A DNA stretch of 63,309 nucleotides, counting the filler, from Reclinomonas americana ATCC 50394 (taxonomy: Eukaryota): assembly GCA_048213135.1 (NCBI GenBank). It is 6 parts of 4 records of this genome, joined end to end, with 100 filler letters (N's around TTAATTAATTAA, not from the genome) between each part and the next. Parts side by side here need not be neighbours in the genome. Positions count along the whole stretch, not along the records: positions 19,338 to 29,513 come from PS015017.1; 5 more parts are not named here. The stretch is one strand, 5' to 3'. This document shows positions 4,543 to 63,309 of the stretch, in pieces (positions within the stretch are counted from its first letter, which is position 1; each line of letters begins with the position of its first letter). The notes beneath the pieces are model-generated. The model did not search any database. It saw nothing but the letters and a program-made list of their open reading frames with translations, and had not been told where the DNA came from. A program made the position numbers and the translations under genes.

Positions 4543-6862
4543 ATGTCGGTCAACGCACCTGCCGATGAGCAGTACCTGCAGGTGCCCTCACGCGGAGGCG
4601 ATGGGCGAGCAAGTCCGCAGCCTTCTCCGCGCAAGAAGGTGGGATTCACGCGCAGCGCACTCAATCTCAAGAAGGAGCCTGTGGCGGGAGCAGCTGCACA
4701 GAGCAGTGGTGCTGGTGGGACGTTTACTCCGCGCTCACACGACAGTGTCGGCAGTTGAGTGTGCTCTTTGTAAGAGAGAGGGCAAGAGAGGGAAGGAAGA
4801 GTGCTGATTGTGAGATCTTGTGTTGCAGGTTATGATCACACCAAGCCGCCACCGGACAAGGTGAGCAGCAGCATGTGAGAGCAAGAGAGAAAGAGGGAGG
4901 AAGGAGAGTGACAGAGAGAGAGAGGAAGGGTGGCCATGGCATAGATGTGCGTTTGCTTTGTTGCTCACTCTCTCCTCTTGCGCGCGCGCGTAGCACAATG
5001 TGGCGTACTGGATCCTGGTGTTGCTCGGCGCAGGGTACGCTCGCAAACATGACAGAACAGGCAGATGTGTGTTTTTCCTCACACAATCTCTGTGTGTGCA
5101 GACTACTCTTCCCGTGGAACAGCTTCATCTCGGCTCCTGATTACTTTACGTTGCGTAGATTGCTTGTCTTGCTCTCTATCTCTCTCTCCCTTGCTCGCTC
5201 ACTCGCGGTGCACAGGTACTACTATCAGAGCAATATCGAGTTCCTGTTTGCCATGGTGTACACCGTGCCCAACTTCCTCGGTCTCCTCCTCATGATCTGG
5301 ATCGGCAATGTTCCGTCCCTCTTCTCTGACATGTACATGTGGAGTCGTCTCTTGCGTGCTGATTTCCGATGCTCGTGCACAGCGCTTCAGCTTTGTCGGC
5401 AAAGTCTTTGTGTGGTTCACGGTGGCGCTGGTGATTCTGGTGCTGACGCCTCTGATCCCCTCGTTTGGCATGCCGGAGACTGGCCGCTTGATTTTCGTGC
5501 TTGGCCTCGTGTTCATTCAGGGCTTTGGCACGGCCGTGTTGCAGGCCAGGTTCGTGACGTGTGTTTGTGATTCGTTGGCGATGGGTTTTGACTGGTTGTG
5601 TGTGTGTGTGCGCAGCATGTTTGGCTTTGCGGCGCTGATGCCTGCCATCTACTCGCAAGCGCTGATGGGTGGCAATGGCTTTGCCGGCGTCATTGTGTCG
5701 GTGTTGCGTCTGATCACCAAGGCCGGCTTGGCGCACAGCTCCAACGGTGAGGCGCGATTCATTGATGATCACATGCGTATCAATCGCGTGCACTTACGCT
5801 CTCCCCAGCCCTCGAACTGAGCGGCCTGATCTACTTTGTGCTGTCGGCCTTTATTGTGCTGCTGTGCATCATTGCCTTCTGGATCATGCTCAAGTTGCCG
5901 TTCACGCGCTTCTACATTACCCAAAATCCCGTCGATTCGCTCTATGAGCAGCCGCTGATGCAAGACGAGGCCGAGGCCACGGACTCGGAGGACTCGGAGG
6001 AGGCCATTGTTGCGTCTTTGTTGCCTGTTACCTTTGGCCTCCGCCCCAACTGATTTCGACGCGCCGACAGCCCCTGAAAGAGGGAGATGCGTTGCGCTTC
6101 CACTCGGACACGCCGGCCTCGTACGGTGGCGAGAAGGATCTGGAGCACTCGGCCAAGGTGACGCACACAGCCAACCTGTGGCACATTATCAGGAAGCGCT
6201 GGGTGCCGGCGTTCAGTGTGTTCTACACATTCTTCGTGTCGCTGGCCGTGTTCCCGGGGATTGCGACAAGCATCACGCCCAATGCATTCGGCGGCTGGTT
6301 CAGTGTCATTATTGTGGTGCGAGAAGAATTGTGATAATGCGTATGGTGATGATCCTGCGTCTCACTGCACTCGCGCACGCACAGACGGTGTTCAACGTGT
6401 TCGACACGATCGGTCGTCTGTCGCCCGCCTGGTTCAAGCTGTCCAACGAAAAGTGGCTGCTGGTGCCCGTGCTTGCGCGCAGCATTTTCCTGCCCGCCTT
6501 TGTGCTGTGCATCAAGCCGCAGGTGTTTGCGTCGCCATGGTGGGCGCTCTCCTTTATGGCCCTCATGGCGTTCACGAATGGCCACTTTGGAAGTTGTGTT
6601 TCCACAGCCGTTCCCTCATATCCTCCATGGCGTTTCTCATCTTTCATTCATTCTCGCTCAGGTCTGTCGATGATGTTGGGACCGTCGCATCACTGCCGCA
6701 CGTTTGAGAAGGAGCTGTGCGGCACGATGATGGTACGCGTTTGGAGGGTGCACGATCGTATCATTTTTGTTACAGAAACTGACTCATTCACAGACGGCGT
6801 CGTTGTTGCTGGGCATCACGGTCGGCTCTTTTGGTGGCATGGGTATTAGTGCAGCAGTTTAG
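4543..6862 (+). CDS. Equilibrative nucleoside transporter (ENT/SLC29 family), 12 exons
   Basis: Spliced product contains PPDK-HNVAYWILVLLGAGLLFPWNSFISAPDYF, YSQALMGGNGFAG, TFFVSLAVFPG, FNVFDTIGR, MAFTNGHFGS, EKELCG. All 11 introns are GT-AG and in phase; stop TAG at 6860-6862. Confidence 0.92.
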
Positions 6863-12670: not shown

Positions 12671-12788
12671 GTCACCAAGATGCGCCTTGTCTGTCTTTTT
12701 TTTTCTTGCACTTCTCACGCTCTCTCTTTTTGTGTGTGTGCGTGNNNNNNNNNNNNNNNNNNNNNNNNNNNNNNNNNNNNNNNNNNNN

Positions 12789-12800
12789 TTAATTAATTAA
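12789..12800. other. Artificial scaffold linker TTAATTAATTAA flanked by 44 N on each side
   Basis: Identical 100-nt spacer with stops in all six frames, recurring five times in the window. Confidence 0.95.
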
Positions 12801-12874
12801 NNNNNNNNNNNNNNNNNNNNNNNNNNNNNNNNNNNNNNNNNNNNAGAGAGTGTGAGATACTGTTGCCAACAAAG

Positions 12875-19030: not shown

Positions 19031-19281
19031 AAGAGGACACCAGAAGAAAGAGAGCGACGAGAGACCTATGACGACATCACACAGAGAGGTAAACAAGTGA
19101 ACCATAACACACATACAGAGAAAATAGTGCACGCGTATGCGCAGCGTGCGAGGCGACAGTTGAGTGTGCTCACACTGACAAACAACCATGATAGGAGACC
19201 CTTTTCTACTACTCATAATCACACACTTACCCTCTGTNNNNNNNNNNNNNNNNNNNNNNNNNNNNNNNNNNNNNNNNNNNN

Positions 19282-19293
19282 TTAATTAATTAA
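19282..19293. other. Artificial scaffold linker
   Basis: N44-TTAATTAATTAA-N44. Confidence 0.95.
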
Positions 19294-19337
19294 NNNNNNN
19301 NNNNNNNNNNNNNNNNNNNNNNNNNNNNNNNNNNNNN

Positions 19338-19394
19338 CCCCCCGCGCGAGTTCCCCGACCCAGCAGGACGGCGGCTGATAGCGTCAACGCCTAA
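19338..19394 (+). CDS. 3' tail of a third IFI44-like paralog (rest lost beyond the scaffold start)
   Basis: Encodes PPARVPRPSRTAADSVNA*, homologous to the last exon PPARVPRPNRMVTDDVDT* of the copy ending at 21760. Confidence 0.75.
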   Translation, partial: PPARVPRPSRTAADSVNA

Positions 19395-19806
19395 ATGAGC
19401 GCATAGTAAGAGACGCACGAAATGAAAGCTCAAGTTAATGAATGAAATCGCCACGGAACGAACCGCTCGAGCACAGAGAGATAGACCTCAGAGTATTAAT
19501 CACATGCAACCTGGACGCCGTGGAGCAGTGTCGCGTGAGAACATGATGTACTCATAAAGCAATCCATGTAACATACCTTATCGATATCCTGTGTCATTGC
19601 TGTGCTTCCCGTGTTCCTCTTACGCTCACTGGTGCGAATTGTGCACGATATGATCCACGTCAGATTGGTGCAGTCCGCCGGATATCATACGAACCAACCC
19701 GTATGGAATGATTTCGACCAGTGACAGCAAGCTGCCCTGTCGCATTTCCATTAGTTGCACACTTTTCTTCTTCCGTCTCGGAGCGCAAACAGTCTCACCA
19801 AAGGTT

Positions 19807-21760
19807 ATGGGTAGCAGACACTCGGTACGCCTGTTTGCACGTGGCACTCACAGCTCTGCTCACTCAGCAATTGACTCGTGAACAGCGACCGCCACCACCG
19901 CCACCGCGTCGACCAACACCGCGACAAGCACCACCGCGGCCACCACCACCACCACCACCAGCGCAACCTCGCCAAGCAGCGCCACTGCAACCTCGTCCAG
20001 CAGCGCCACTGCAACCTCGTCCAGCAGCGCCACTGCAACCTCGTCCAGCAGCGCCACCGCAACCTCGTCAAGCGCCACCGCAACCTCGTCCAGCAGCGCC
20101 ACCGCAACCTCGTCAAGCGCCACCACCACCACCACCACCACCACCACCACCGCCGCCTCCTCCGCCACCTCCGCCTCCACCACCACCTCCTCCACCACCT
20201 CCAGTTGTCTGCGCGCCCAGCCCCGTGGAACCCATGGAAGCACCCGACATCCCAGAAGTGGAGTGCCTCAGGACCACTCGCTCGCTCAAGTTCATCATCA
20301 CTCTCCCCGAGGCTGCCGACGAGGAGCAGATCATCGAGCACGTCGTGGGGTTCGAAGTCACAGATCCGGCCCGACCCCACAGCGCGACCGTGGACATTCC
20401 AGTGATGCGCGATCGACGCACTGGCAAAATCCGCGGCGAGTACACCGTTGGCGATCTGGCCCCCGGCCAAGGCGTCACGCGCATCTTCCGCATCTTGGTC
20501 AATCATCAGGAGATCAAGGAGGACAGCGCGTGGACGCCACGCCGCACGTACTACACGTTGCGACAGCTGCCCGACAGTATCGACGAAGCACGCCAACAGA
20601 TGCTTGTCTTCCTGGAGAACCTGGAGCCAGCCAATCCCCCATCGGAGACGCCTCTGCGTCCGTGCCCGGTCTCGCGCTTCCGCCTGCAAGTGTTTGGTGA
20701 GTTGCAACTCCCACAGCATGCTCTTCCTCTCTCCTCTGCTTCTCACCCATGTATGCGCTCATAGGCGAGGCTCAGAGCGGCAAGAGTTCGTTTTTCAACA
20801 CAGTCACATCGATTCTGGAGAAGCGCTACTGCGCGATGGCCGTGGTCGGTGCACATGTAGGAACCTCGGGTGTTGGTGTCACTCATCACTGGTTCTCCAC
20901 ACCCATTGGCAAGGGAATTGCGCTGCTGGAGAGTTGGTGCGCACAAAAAAATCCAGTCGCTCACTCCCTCCCAACGATCTCACTCACTCCGTGATGACAC
21001 AGGGGGTTCTGTCTCACCGACGACGGTCAGCCGGCAGCAGCAGAAGCCATGCAAGGGGTGGATGATACGGACAGTACTGTGGCGGCCTCGTACGCACGCC
21101 ACCTCGAGCCGATGGTGACTGGCGATCTCCCTGAGAACTTCAACTGCGTCACCGATCACATTCCCGAGCTGGAGGAGCCCACCGCCGACCGCTGCGCGCA
21201 CAGTGCCATCCTCCTCATCCGCGCCTCGGCCCTCACCGACTTGGACCGCCTGCGTCGGTACAGAGTCTTCTACGGAAGGCTCCTGGATCGCGGCCTGCAG
21301 CCACTGGTGGTCGTCACCATGTGCGACAAGATCGACTCCAACATCAGCTACGGCTCAGTTGCCGCCATCGCCGAGAGCAATCCCGTCGAGGAGGCACTGA
21401 GCAAGTTCGCCGAAGACTTCGCCGTCGACCGCAGCCACATCTTCCCCATCGTCAACTATCGAGGTCCGTACGCACAACCCGATGCAGGTGATCAATGCAC
21501 CCAATGCGTCGCCACCTCCGTCATGCATCTCACCCCTTGTCACAGCACTCGAGTACCTGGTGCTCAGCGTACTGAGGGAGGCCGTGCACCGCGCCCATGA
21601 TTTCATCGGTGAGTTGTGCCGAGCACCGTTCTCATCATGCCATTGCACTCAAGCATACAGTGCAGTGGGCGGCAACTTGAAGCGATACAATGGTCACCGG
21701 TTCCCCCCGGCGCGAGTTCCCCGACCCAACAGGATGGTGACTGATGATGTAGATACCTGA
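19807..21760 (+). CDS. IFI44-like P-loop GTPase, copy A: MGSRHS myristoylation-type N-terminus, Pro-rich linker, FN3-like domain, IFI44-type GTPase; 6 exons
   Basis: 18-nt exon 1 (19807-19824) splices to exon 2 at 19886. FN3 signature YTVGDLAPG..IFRI..SAWT. GTPase motifs RLQVFGEAQSGKSSFFNTVTSI, LLESWG, DRCAH, VVTMCD, IFPIVNY, LVLSVLREAVHRAHDFI follow the IFI44/IFI44L motif order. Confidence 0.8.
19962..20203 (+). repeat. Coding tandem repeat (24-nt unit, QPRPAAPL) followed by a polyproline tract
   Basis: Repeated gcaacctcgtccagcagcgccact units, then (CCN)n codons. Confidence 0.9.
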
Positions 21761-22282
21761 TTGAGTGCAAGAGTGTCAGAGGTGCAAAATGAAAGCATGA
21801 GTTCAAGAAGCGAACCGATTGCAATTGAGCGCAGAGCGATAGAGGCTGTGAGAGCCGCACACAACCTGGCCGCCTGGAACAGTGTCACAGGTGAGATCAT
21901 CTTGTATTCATCACGGAGTCCACATGGCTTTGCAAACCTTATCTTGTATCACTGCTGTGCTTCTCATGTTCCTCCTACGAAAAGCGATCTCATCAGAGTG
22001 TACTGTCAGCCGGATTCTGCTGAAACAGGCCATGGCCGAATGAGTTGAACCACATTCTGCCCTGTCGCATTTCCGTTCCACATTTTCGTTCTTTTTCCGT
22101 CTCGGAGCGCAAACAATCTCACCAAAGGCTGCTACGCGCAGCCTCTCGAAACGTCCGTTTGCCACAGCTCTCCTCACTCTGCAGTGGACGCTCAGTGACA
22201 CCGTGTAGACCAACACCGCGACAACCACAAAAGCACGACCACCGCCAACGCCAGTAGTCCACACACCCACCCCGTGGATTCA

Positions 22283-23850
22283 ATGGAGGCACCCGTGTCC
22301 ATCAAGGTAACTCTCGCTGCCCCAGCAGTGGAGTGCATCAGGACAACTCGCTCAATCAAGTTCATCATCACTATCCGCGCGGCTGTCGCCGGGGAACGAT
22401 TGATCCAGAATGTGCCTATCGTGAGGTTCCAGGTCATGGATCCGGCCCGATCGCACAGCACGACTGTAGACATTCCAGTGATGCGCGATCCACACACTGG
22501 CAAAGTCAACGGCGAATACACAGTCGACGACCTGGCCCCCGGCCAGGGCATCACCCGCATATTCCGCATGTCAACGGGGGCCGATCACCCAGAGGCCAAG
22601 GAGGACAGCGCGTGGACGCCACGCCGCACGTACTACACGCTGCGACAGCTGCCCGACAGTATCGATGAAGCGCGGCAACAGATGCTTGTCTTCCTGGAGA
22701 ACCTGGAGCCAGCCAATCCCCCATCGGAGACGCCTCTGCATCCGTGCCCGGTGCCGCGTTTCCGCCTGCAAGTGTTTGGTGAGTCGTGACTTCCACAGCA
22801 TGTCATTCCTCTCTTTCTGTTATGTCTCACCTCGTGTATGCACTCCACTCCTCACAGGCGAGGCTCAGAGCGGCAAGAGTTCGTTTTTCAACACAGTCAA
22901 ATCAATCTTGGAGAGGCGCTATGCCGCGATGGCCGTCGTCGGCGCACATGTAGGAATCGGAGTCGGTGTCACTCATCATTGGTTCTCCACGCCCGTGGGC
23001 ACGGGAATTGCGCTGCTGGAGAGTTGGTGCGCCAAATTAGTCCAATCGCTCACTCTCTGCAGCCTCTCACTCAGTGCGACATGACACAGGGGGTTCTGCC
23101 TCACCGACGACGGTCAACCGAGTGGTGCGGCAGCAGCTGAAGCCATGCAGGCACTGGGAGACACAGACAGTACTGTGGCGGCCTCGTACACACGCCACCT
23201 CGAGCCGATGCTGCTTGGAGCTCTTCCGGAGAACTTCAACTGCCTCACGGACTACATTCCCGAGCCGGAGGAGCCCAGCATCGACCGCTGCGCGCACTGC
23301 GTCATCCTCCTCGTCCGTGCCTCGGCCCTCACCGACTTGGACCGCCTGCGTCGGTACAAAGTATTCTACGGCAGGCTCCTGGATCGCGGCCTGCAGCCAC
23401 TGGTGGTCGTCACCATGTGCGACAAGATCGACTCCAACATTAGCTGCGGCTCAGTTGCCGCCATTGCCGAGAGCAATCCCGTCGAGGAGGCACTGAGCAA
23501 GTTCGCCGAAGACTTCGCCGTCGACCGCAGCCACATTTTCCCCATCGTCAACTATCGCGGTCCGTACGCACAACCCGATGCAGGTGATCAACGTAACCAA
23601 TGCGTCGCCACCTCCGTCATGCATCTCACCCCTTGTCACAGCACTCGAGTACCTGGTGCTCAGCGTACTGAGGGAGGCCGTGTACCGCGCCCACGATTTC
23701 ATCGGTGAGTTGTGCATCATTCTCTTCATGCACACGTGCGCGCAACAATGCACTCAAACACACAGTGCAGCTGGCGGCAACATGAAGCGACACAACGGTC
23801 ACCGTTTTCCCCCCGCGCGAGTTCCCAATAGGATGGTGACTGACGAGTGA
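22283..23850 (+). CDS. IFI44-like P-loop GTPase, copy B: FN3-like + GTPase, lacking the myristoylation exon and Pro-rich region; 5 exons
   Basis: Intact frames and the same four intron positions as copy A; GEAQSGKSSFFNTVKSI. The upstream homolog of exon 1 has lost its ATG and GT donor. Confidence 0.75.
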
Positions 23851-60052: not shown

Positions 60053-60595
60053 GGTGGTTGCTTAGCGATGAAGTGAGTGTGACGGAGTGGATGGTGAGAG
60101 GACACGATCACGACGTCCACTGCATCGACAGTGAGCTCTCGCTCAGCAGCAGCAGCAGCAGCAAGAGCAGCAGGCAGCCGGCCATGAAACTGTGTGTGCC
60201 AAAGAAGCATCAGGAGCACATAATCGCTGGAGCCGACTCGCGAGAGAGTGCATGATCATGATCACGAGAACAACGTCGACGAGCTTCTGCTCTCACGCGC
60301 ACGTGTACACTTGAGGTGCGCACTGGCAGCTTTGTGCATTCTGCTATCGTACCCTGCGCTTGGCTTTGCTAGCTGCTTGGTGGGATCCGAATCCGCAGCG
60401 GAGGAATATTGGACTCGAACATGTGGTTGTCGTCGACGTCTTGCTATGCACACACAAAGAGATTGTCTCGCGTCTCAACACTGTCGTTCACATCATCTAA
60501 CTACTTCCCCATCACACAAGAAAACAGAAGTGGTGGACGCCCAGCGATATCNNNNNNNNNNNNNNNNNNNNNNNNNNNNNNNNNNNNNNNNNNNN

Positions 60596-60607
60596 TTAAT
60601 TAATTAA
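60596..60607. other. Artificial scaffold linker
   Basis: N44-TTAATTAATTAA-N44. Confidence 0.95.
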
Positions 60608-60651
60608 NNNNNNNNNNNNNNNNNNNNNNNNNNNNNNNNNNNNNNNNNNNN

Positions 60652-62580: not shown

Positions 62581-63309
62581 TTATCGGCGCAAATCGACAA
62601 TCACCACCGTCATGTTGTCGGTGCCGAGGCCACCGTTGGAGCGCGTGTCGGGTGCGCAGCACTCGTCCTCCAGCTCCGCAGCAATATCCGACAGCTTCGG
62701 GGCCGGCTCGCCGGTCCGCTGCGGCCTCTCGATCAGCCGCTCGCGCACATACGTGACAACCTCCTGGTTCGTCTTCACGTCCCAGATGCCGTCGCAGGCC
62801 AGCACCAGGAATTCGTCCTCGGGCGTCAGCTGGTGCGACCGCACATCCGGCTCGGCGCTAATAATCTGGCGCTCCGCTGGCAGCGACTTGTTGACCTTGT
62901 ACTTGAGGTCACCAATGGCGCGGCTCAAGTTGAGCGATCCGTTGACACGGCCAACTGCCGTCACAAAGCCACCGGCCGCCACAATTCGTCGTCTCTCCGG
63001 CTCATCCTCTGGCTTGTGATCCTCCGAGAGCGCCACCGCCTGACCGGCCCTCGACAGCACCGCACGAGAGTCGCCAGCATTGGCCACAAACAGCGTCTGG
63101 CCCACCACGGCCGCCACCACCGACGTGCAGCCGGCGTGCACTGGATGCTCGGGCAGCGAGTCGAACTGCGGTCCCGACGACGACGAGCTGCCGCCGGCAG
63201 CGGATCTCGCGCCGCTACTCAACTCAGCCTCCTCATCGTCATCGTCGTCGTCGTCGTCGCCCTTACCACCGCCCTGCTTCTGCTTCTGCTGCATGATGAT
63301 CGAGCGCAG
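62581..63309 (-). CDS. PP2C/PPM phosphatase (PPM1G-like with acidic insert); 5' partial
   Basis: AGCTSVV, VANAGDSRAVL, LSEDHKP, RVNGSLNLSRAIGDLKYK, FLVLACDGIWD, GTDNMTVVIV. Confidence 0.95.
   Translation of the reverse strand: MRSIIMQQKQKQGGGKGDDDDDDDDEEAELSSGARSAAGGSSSSSGPQFDSLPEHPVHAGCTSVVAAVVGQTLFVANAGDSRAVLSRAGQAVALSEDHKPEDEPERRRIVAAGGFVTAVGRVNGSLNLSRAIGDLKYKVNKSLPAERQIISAEPDVRSHQLTPEDEFLVLACDGIWDVKTNQEVVTYVRERLIERPQRTGEPAPKLSDIAAELEDECCAPDTRSNGGLGTDNMTVVIVDLRR

Follow-up and report, generated by a model that had tools for sequence, protein, structure and literature searches.

Tandem paralogues in Reclinomonas americana that join a predicted FN3-like beta-sandwich to a GTPase domain, probable VWA-less members of a rare protist family

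We analysed a 63,309-nucleotide stretch of DNA from Reclinomonas americana ATCC 50394 (assembly GCA_048213135.1; hereafter referred to as the window), which contains a tandem array of genes encoding a predicted FN3-like beta-sandwich followed by a GTPase domain (G domain). The window consists of joined contigs, and the linkers between them (12745–12844, 19238–19337, 29514–29613, 38385–38484 and 60552–60651) are each composed of 44 N, TTAATTAATTAA and 44 N, with stops in all six frames. The array sits on the contig at 19338–29513 (PS015017.1). Because a linker occupies 19238–19337, the sequence to the left of 19338 belongs to a different contig, and the gene order across the linkers is not physical evidence. 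Two complete copies, A (19807–21740) and B (22283–23839), lie on the + strand.

The relationship between the copies was assessed by BLASTN within the window. Positions 20251–21747 aligned with 22321–23846 at 85.2% identity over 1544 columns, and the spacer at 21704–22254 aligned with 19338–19961 at 65% identity over 643 columns. In both A and B, the final part of the last intron and the terminal mini-exon have a counterpart in the first ~45 bases of the contig (19338–19382, + strand), which are ~90% identical to 21704–21748. Thus, a third copy upstream is truncated by the contig end, and what remains of it is the 3′ part of the last intron together with the terminal mini-exon. A tblastn search with four exon peptides found no additional copy in the window, and the spacer homology ends downstream of copy B, which is therefore the last unit. 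The match between A and B and the 45-base tail at 19338 bear out the first-pass annotation, which had proposed a family expanded by tandem duplication into an array of at least three copies, two whole and one represented by its tail; the offsets of about 2.07 and 2.37 kb agree with the unit length of ~2.1–2.4 kb given there.

Upstream of copy A (19740–19805, + strand) and of copy B (22058–22137, + strand) lies a block of ~70 bases that is nearly identical in the two places, within a spacer that is otherwise only about 65% identical. A 21-mer taken from it occurs in the window only at 19771 and 22095, against 0.01 occurrences expected by chance. The block is a candidate core promoter or 5′ untranslated element common to A and B. 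Identity between the two copies themselves is mosaic, reaching 96–97% at 20517–20700 and at 21247–21600, the latter with intron 3 included, and ranging from 61 to 87% elsewhere. Such a pattern in the aligned sequences suggests gene conversion between A and B.

Neither copy forms one open frame, and GT-AG introns at matching positions in A and B restore a single frame. Each predicted model has five exons and four such introns, all on the + strand. In copy A the introns measure 68, 66, 58 and 124 bases. Its long exon (19868–20696) ends with the segment for a linker helix and the first strand of the G domain (20579–20696; helix at residues 119–132 of the structural model described below), which aligns to the linker of four of the relatives introduced below (P0002, P0003, P0005 and P0008). 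The P-loop exon (20765–20936) carries GEAQSGKS, the switch-I threonine in GVGVT, and the G3 motif ESW|G, which is completed across the splice junction. The following exon (21003–21487) encodes an insertion of ~20 residues after G3, then DRCAH, the G4-like TMCD and IVNYRGPY. In the alignment with relatives, the exon for the C-terminal helix (21546–21608; LEYLVLSVLREAVHRAHDFI) falls on the closing helix of their G domain, and a terminal mini-exon (21733–21740) supplies glycine, tryptophan and the stop codon.

The first exon of copy B (22283–22778) comprises the initiating methionine, which is preceded by an in-frame stop, the FN3-like domain and the linker, and has no proline-rich arm. It is followed by the P-loop exon (22858–23026), the main G-domain exon (23090–23583), the C-terminal helix exon (23642–23704) and a mini-exon (23832–23839) whose Gly-Trp-stop ending is identical to that of copy A; the spliced model has 409 residues. 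In both copies the predicted junctions rebuild motifs that are conserved in relatives, namely VF|GEAQSGKS, ESW|G opposite D[IT][FYW]G, and NYRGPY. The relatives keep GPY after NY, which decided the boundaries of intron 3: the donor was set at 21488, and an alternative donor at 21464 and an alternative acceptor at 21487 were ruled out.

The N-terminus of copy A may be longer than that of copy B. A hypothetical first exon at 19807–19824 (+ strand) encodes MGSRHS in a frame different from that of the proline-rich stretch that follows, and a hypothetical 43-base GT-AG intron (19825–19867) would join the two in the right phase. The resulting long model has 524 residues, with 67 prolines among the first 125. 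Translation of the proline-rich repeat region (19868–20224, + strand) depends on the 43-base intron being real; the tandem repeats in this region recur every 24 and 45 bases, each a whole number of codons. In favour of the long form are these repeat periods and the ATG at 19807, by eye the only one from the conserved upstream block to the methionine at 20234, which has G at both −3 and +4. Against it, none of the other four introns is as short as 43 bases, several frames stay open anyway in low-complexity CCA/CCG sequence, and in copy B, which starts at the methionine homologous to that at 20234, the ATG, the donor and the proline-rich region are all missing. From these sequence features we put the reality of the long form at about even odds.

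The order proposed in the first-pass annotation for copy A, an MGxxxS start, proline-rich repeats, an FN3-like domain and a P-loop domain, thus exists only after splicing, with the proviso that MGSRHS needs a hypothetical intron that copy B does not have. The membrane targeting that was read from this start fares weakly. A Met-Gly start with serine at position 6 is encoded in copy A, where the main frame is reached only through the putative 43-base intron; it belongs to a hypothetical 18-base exon of that copy only, and no hydrophobic segment is present in either protein (maximum KD19 of 1.18 and 1.29).

Differences in exon length between A and B amount to 33, 3 and 9 bases, all multiples of three, and those in intron length to 11, 3, 0 and 25 bases. 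The ratio of nonsynonymous to synonymous substitution rates (dN/dS) between the copies is approximately 0.31 overall, with 0.42 for the beta-sandwich, 0.12 for the linker and 0.25 for the GTPase domain; it is below 1 in every domain, and no positive selection was seen. On these sequence estimates both copies are under purifying selection. The dN/dS of 0.31 and the intact frames make both copies look functional.

To characterize the domain ahead of the linker, an AlphaFold2 model of positions 20225–20695 was built from an eight-row alignment. The model (mean pLDDT 63.2, predicted template modelling score 0.52) contains seven strands, at residues 11–16, 21–27, 41–45, 54–62, 69–75, 83–85 and 108–110, followed by a helix, and its residues 8–114 place the FN3-like sandwich of copy A at 20246–20566 (+ strand). 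When the model was compared with 48,161 chains by VIA-align, the best 50 had Z of 7.3–8.5, root-mean-square deviations of 2.3–4.7 (most of them 2.4–3.2) and 77–101 aligned residues. FN3 appeared in the titles of 33 of these 50; 10 of the 50 were cytokine or interferon receptor ectodomains, which are of FN3 type, and the remaining best-50 entries were tenascin, Sevenless, ROS1, EphB2, neogenin, POMGNT2 and one CBM56. Pfam fn3 (PF00041) gave no match in the window; at the homologous place in two relatives it matched below threshold, with E values of 0.22 (P0003) and 0.04 (P0008). The VIA-align result supports an FN3 topology of the modelled domain and stops short of proving homology. The FN3-like domain that had been proposed ahead of the P-loop is accordingly upheld at the level of a predicted structure.

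The motifs of the G domain of copy A follow the canonical order, with G1 (GEAQSGKS) at 283, then GVGVT, G3 (ESWG) at 338 and G4 (TMCD) at 445. The window proteins retain G1, the switch-I VT, the G4 aspartate and a family-specific FP.VNY.GPY. Both copies depart from the standard pattern in having glutamate for aspartate in G3, methionine for lysine in G4 and the ~20-residue insertion after G3. With its motifs in order and a significant match to GTPase relatives, the P-loop domain claimed in the first-pass annotation proved to be of genuine GTPase type. The motif strings quoted there held in part: GKSSFFN.V.SI is exact and TMCD fits T..D, and by eye D..HC, I..V.NY and L.LS.LR....A.DF are each off by one residue.

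Solved relatives of this domain were found with a profile of the family. Against the PDB sequences it matched Toc33/34 with E values from 4.7e-4 to 3e-3 and IRGB10/IIGP1 from 8e-3 to 2e-2, and septins and GIMAP4 more weakly; these matches all span only the region from the P-loop to switch II. The fold modelled for the relative P0006 (pLDDT 67.4, mostly 70–93 in the G domain) is that of a GTPase; Foldseek gave this model at least 500 matches at E≤1e-3, which come from many GTPase families and single out none. Pfam Septin (PF00735) matched nothing in the window, whether in pieces or read through. From the motifs and profile matches, the domain is probably a TRAFAC-class GTPase, broadly of the septin/Toc34/IRG/GIMAP kind.

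The closest relatives were identified by an exhaustive HMMER search of 1.84 billion representative proteins, in which exon 3 (bases 21004–21462, 153 residues) served as the query. Eight proteins passed E≤1e-3, the best of them with an E value of 8.7e-7 and 30% identity, and no match reached E≤1e-10; identities of exon 3 to the relatives range from 24 to 32%. The relatives come from MMETSP, JGI, Logan and NCBI records, and a cluster look-up of P0001–P0009 yielded no informative protein names. Further searches added little: a second protein search with exon 3 kept 0 of 3254 candidates, residues 300–560 of P0002 retrieved only P0002 itself, profile A1 retrieved only P0005, P0006 and P0009, and among metagenome contigs exon 3 gave 257 pattern matches with 0 confirmed. 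The spliced proteins of A and B matched the P0005 cluster with phmmer E values of 8e-14 to 1e-13 (Z=1.84e9), and a single alignment joined residues 198–519 of copy A to residues 262–564 of P0005 across the end of the sandwich, the linker and the G domain.

A VWA domain was found by Pfam in three of the eight relatives (P0002, P0003 and P0005; E values of 1e-15 to 1e-20). P0008 aligns over the VWA region without a Pfam VWA match, and these four proteins align with the window proteins through the sandwich, the linker and the G domain. The window proteins and the protist family have in common GxGKS[SA], VT, hhhD/ExxG, H[AC]V, QP..V.T..D and FP.VNY.GPY. Unlike the members of that family, the window proteins have neither an N-terminal VWA nor a C-terminal module: copy B begins at the sandwich, and copy A has at most a proline-rich arm ahead of it, never a VWA. 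They also differ in G3 (ESWG versus DxxG), in G4 (TMCD versus TKxD) and in the ~20 extra residues after G3. On this sequence comparison, the window genes belong to a rare protist family, of which they are forms without VWA. The architecture is not that of a common housekeeping gene, a possibility that the first-pass annotation had named. What is new here is the VWA-less, tandemly multiplied form with variant G3 and G4; its G domain is of a known superclass.

Other features of the relatives are recorded here in their own right. Their C-terminal tails differ, with double zinc ribbons in P0003, a KHA-like segment in P0008 and weakly GRHL1_C-like segments in P0002 and P0005. P0009, a protein of 410 residues, alone among the relatives scores above the Pfam cut-offs for Septin (30.9 versus 26.2 bits), MMR_HSR1 (23.5 versus 21.9 bits) and RsgA_GTPase, and may, judging by these profiles, bridge the family to septin-like GTPases. 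P0003, P0007 and P0008 fall below the MMR_HSR1 cut-off, and other relatives give weak IIGP and AIG1 matches.

The remainder of the window was also surveyed. Of 147 window open reading frame translations scanned, 13 had Pfam matches at E≤1e-5, and the families matched are eukaryotic: nucleoside transporter, TMEM260-like, kinesin, homeodomain, Nramp, ubiquitin and PP2C. As read from its sequence, the window DNA is eukaryotic nuclear DNA. Fragments of homeodomain (35751–36896, − strand), Nramp (40904–41341, + strand), PP2C (62584–63309, − strand), equilibrative nucleoside transporter (5296–6846, + strand) and kinesin motor (31963–32830, + strand) genes lie on other contigs, each split by introns. 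On the array's own contig, downstream of the array and past a 310-N gap, an exon at 24890–25390 (+ strand) encodes leucine-rich repeats (Pfam LRR_4 at 27.3 bits, just above the cut-off; LRR_9 at 27.3 bits, below the cut-off). An Rfam scan of the contig at 19338–29513 returned zero families.

The first-pass annotation had likened the G domain to that of the interferon-induced proteins IFI44 and IFI44L. GKSSFFNTV and the later motifs presumably resemble those of IFI44/IFI44L. The comparison of the window proteins with IFI44/IFI44L was made by published description. According to one report, IFI44 and IFI44L have a G1 of the form GXXXXGKS and a DxxG followed by leucine, G4 is incomplete in IFI44, and deletion of G1 left anti-RSV (respiratory syncytial virus) activity (bioRxiv 10.1101/2020.02.24.963900). 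An oyster IFI44L (CgIFI44L-1) is described as a cytoplasmic protein with TLDc and MMR_HSR1 domains (PMC11682996). By these descriptions, the window proteins are like IFI44 in placing a non-GTPase domain ahead of a G domain with GXXXXGKS and in having an incomplete G4, and also, as presumably cytoplasmic proteins, in location. They differ in that no Pfam family matched the N-terminal exons at E≤10 and the predicted fold there is of FN3 type, so that the TLDc described for IFI44L is absent in the window, and in that MMR_HSR1, reported for CgIFI44L-1, matched the window G domain neither as separate pieces nor with the intron read through. The window G1 is GEAQSGKS, and the window G3 is ESWG followed by phenylalanine, with glutamate where the described DxxG plus hydrophobic residue has aspartate; such features are common to many GTPases and not diagnostic. 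In the literature covered, supplements and figures excepted, neither an account of this family nor any combination of FN3 or VWA with an IFI44-like GTPase was found in protists; a search for the motif string GKSSFFN found no paper, and a search for IFI44 in protists gave nothing relevant.

Toc33/34, IRG proteins (IIGP1 and IRGB10), septins and GIMAP/AIG1, which the family profile matched best among solved proteins, also occur among the structural matches of the P0006 model. They have neither a beta-sandwich head nor the NY.GPY motif. As TRAFAC GTPases they work by forming dimers or oligomers in a nucleotide-dependent manner. A further known combination of GTPase and VWA in eukaryotes is cpRAS-VWA, which is described as a circularly permuted RAS-like GTPase with a VWA and the motif order G3-G4-G5-G1-G2 (PMC2430557). 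The protist family is like it in combining the two domains in eukaryotes and in its scattered distribution, and the window proteins have no VWA. Because G1 (283), G3 (338) and G4 (445) stand in canonical order, an identity with cpRAS-VWA as so described was ruled out.

Taken together, we consider that the array probably comprises three or more paralogues in tandem, of which two are complete, that they encode soluble proteins with an FN3-like sandwich, a helical linker and a C-terminal TRAFAC GTPase domain, and that these are VWA-less members of the protist family. In such proteins the G domain, which keeps G1, the switch-I threonine and the G4 aspartate, would bind guanine nucleotide and, by analogy with Toc34, IRG, septin and GIMAP proteins, might serve as a nucleotide-dependent switch or a self-associating module. 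The beta-sandwich would be a partner-binding head, to which copy A possibly adds a proline-rich N-terminal arm with a myristoylation-type start; copy B would act without one. Several results weigh against this interpretation. The introns of A and B are predicted from sequence, and the suggested gene conversion makes the dN/dS figures approximate. The confidence of the sandwich model is only moderate (pLDDT 63.2), models that lack a clear match commonly reach Z values of 7–8 at best, and a Foldseek comparison of the sandwich model with the PDB found nothing at E≤1e-3 and, below that level, mixed Ig-like folds including FN3. Pfam on the five exon translations gave nothing usable, with one chance match (Gp38_N, E 0.06), and 0 families when in-frame intron 2 was read through with TGA as X. 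In the PDB, phmmer searches returned 0 matches with exon 3 and four chance matches with exon 2 (antibody chains and homocitrate synthase); a PDB sequence search with intron 2 read through likewise gave one chance match. Finally, the variant G3 and G4 and the insertion could mean that GTPase activity is altered or lost.

The same observations can be read in other ways. The G domain may belong to the true IFI44/IFI44L clade, with the genes forming an expanding protist defence family in which an FN3 sensor head replaces TLDc. Tandem duplication and the faster evolution of the sandwich than of the G domain (dN/dS 0.42 versus 0.25) would fit such a family, as would the presumed likeness of the motifs and the reported upregulation of IFI44 in oysters after challenge with ostreid herpesvirus 1 (OsHV-1) (PMC8917759). 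However, the name IFI44 was attached to none of the eight exhaustive-search relatives, and likewise to none of the 41 PDB profile matches, the TLDc described for IFI44L (PMC11682996) is absent in the window, and dN/dS is below 1 throughout. PADLOC and NCBIfam returned nothing for the window pieces and, for the relatives, only weak P-loop matches such as LeoBC, Csn2 and SspF. We regard true IFI44 kinship within an expanding defence family as rather doubtful; a defence or sensor role as such is possible but unsupported. We think it unlikely that the G domain belongs to, or next to, the septin/paraseptin, AIG1-Toc34 or IRG lineages and that the proteins do ordinary cell work in scaffolding, trafficking or at the cortex, with the sandwich as an adaptor and no part in defence. 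Here the solved profile relatives (Toc33/34, IRG and septins), the score of P0009 above the Pfam Septin cut-off (30.9 versus 26.2 bits) and its MMR_HSR1 and RsgA_GTPase matches, the weak IIGP and AIG1 matches in other relatives and the purifying selection on both copies are set against PDB E values of 5e-4 or worse that cover only the P-loop to switch II, a family too rare (8 in 1.84 billion) for a conserved housekeeping GTPase, and a Foldseek result that favours no single GTPase family. Very improbable, in our judgement, is that the copies are decaying or catalytically dead duplicates, either pseudo-GTPases or unexpressed pseudogenes, in a repeat-rich and poorly assembled region. The changes of aspartate to glutamate in G3 and of lysine to methionine in G4, the insertion after G3 in both copies, the loss of the upstream ATG and donor in copy B and the contig break inside the array would all suit decay, but the five-exon frames are intact in both copies, the exon indels are all multiples of three, the G-domain dN/dS is 0.25, and the P-loop, the switch-I threonine and the G4 aspartate are kept.

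A broader scheme, which we offer as speculation and hold to be fairly unlikely, is that an IFI44-type G domain is older than animals and that its heads in protists are interchangeable, being VWA with FN3, FN3 alone, or FN3 with a proline-rich arm for the membrane or cortex. Tandem multiplication of the FN3-only form, accompanied by gene conversion, would then be building up a family for cell-autonomous defence, the protist counterpart of the interferon-induced IFI44 genes of animals.

The mechanism of IFI44/IFI44L is poorly understood, and one antiviral assay is reported in which their predicted nucleotide site was not needed (bioRxiv 10.1101/2020.02.24.963900). If the protist beta-sandwich GTPases were true relatives of IFI44, they would provide an evolutionary origin for the IFI44 module and simpler two-domain proteins in which the action of the G domain could be probed. 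Even without a link to IFI44, the array puts on record a rare family of eukaryotic GTPases whose heads are modular.

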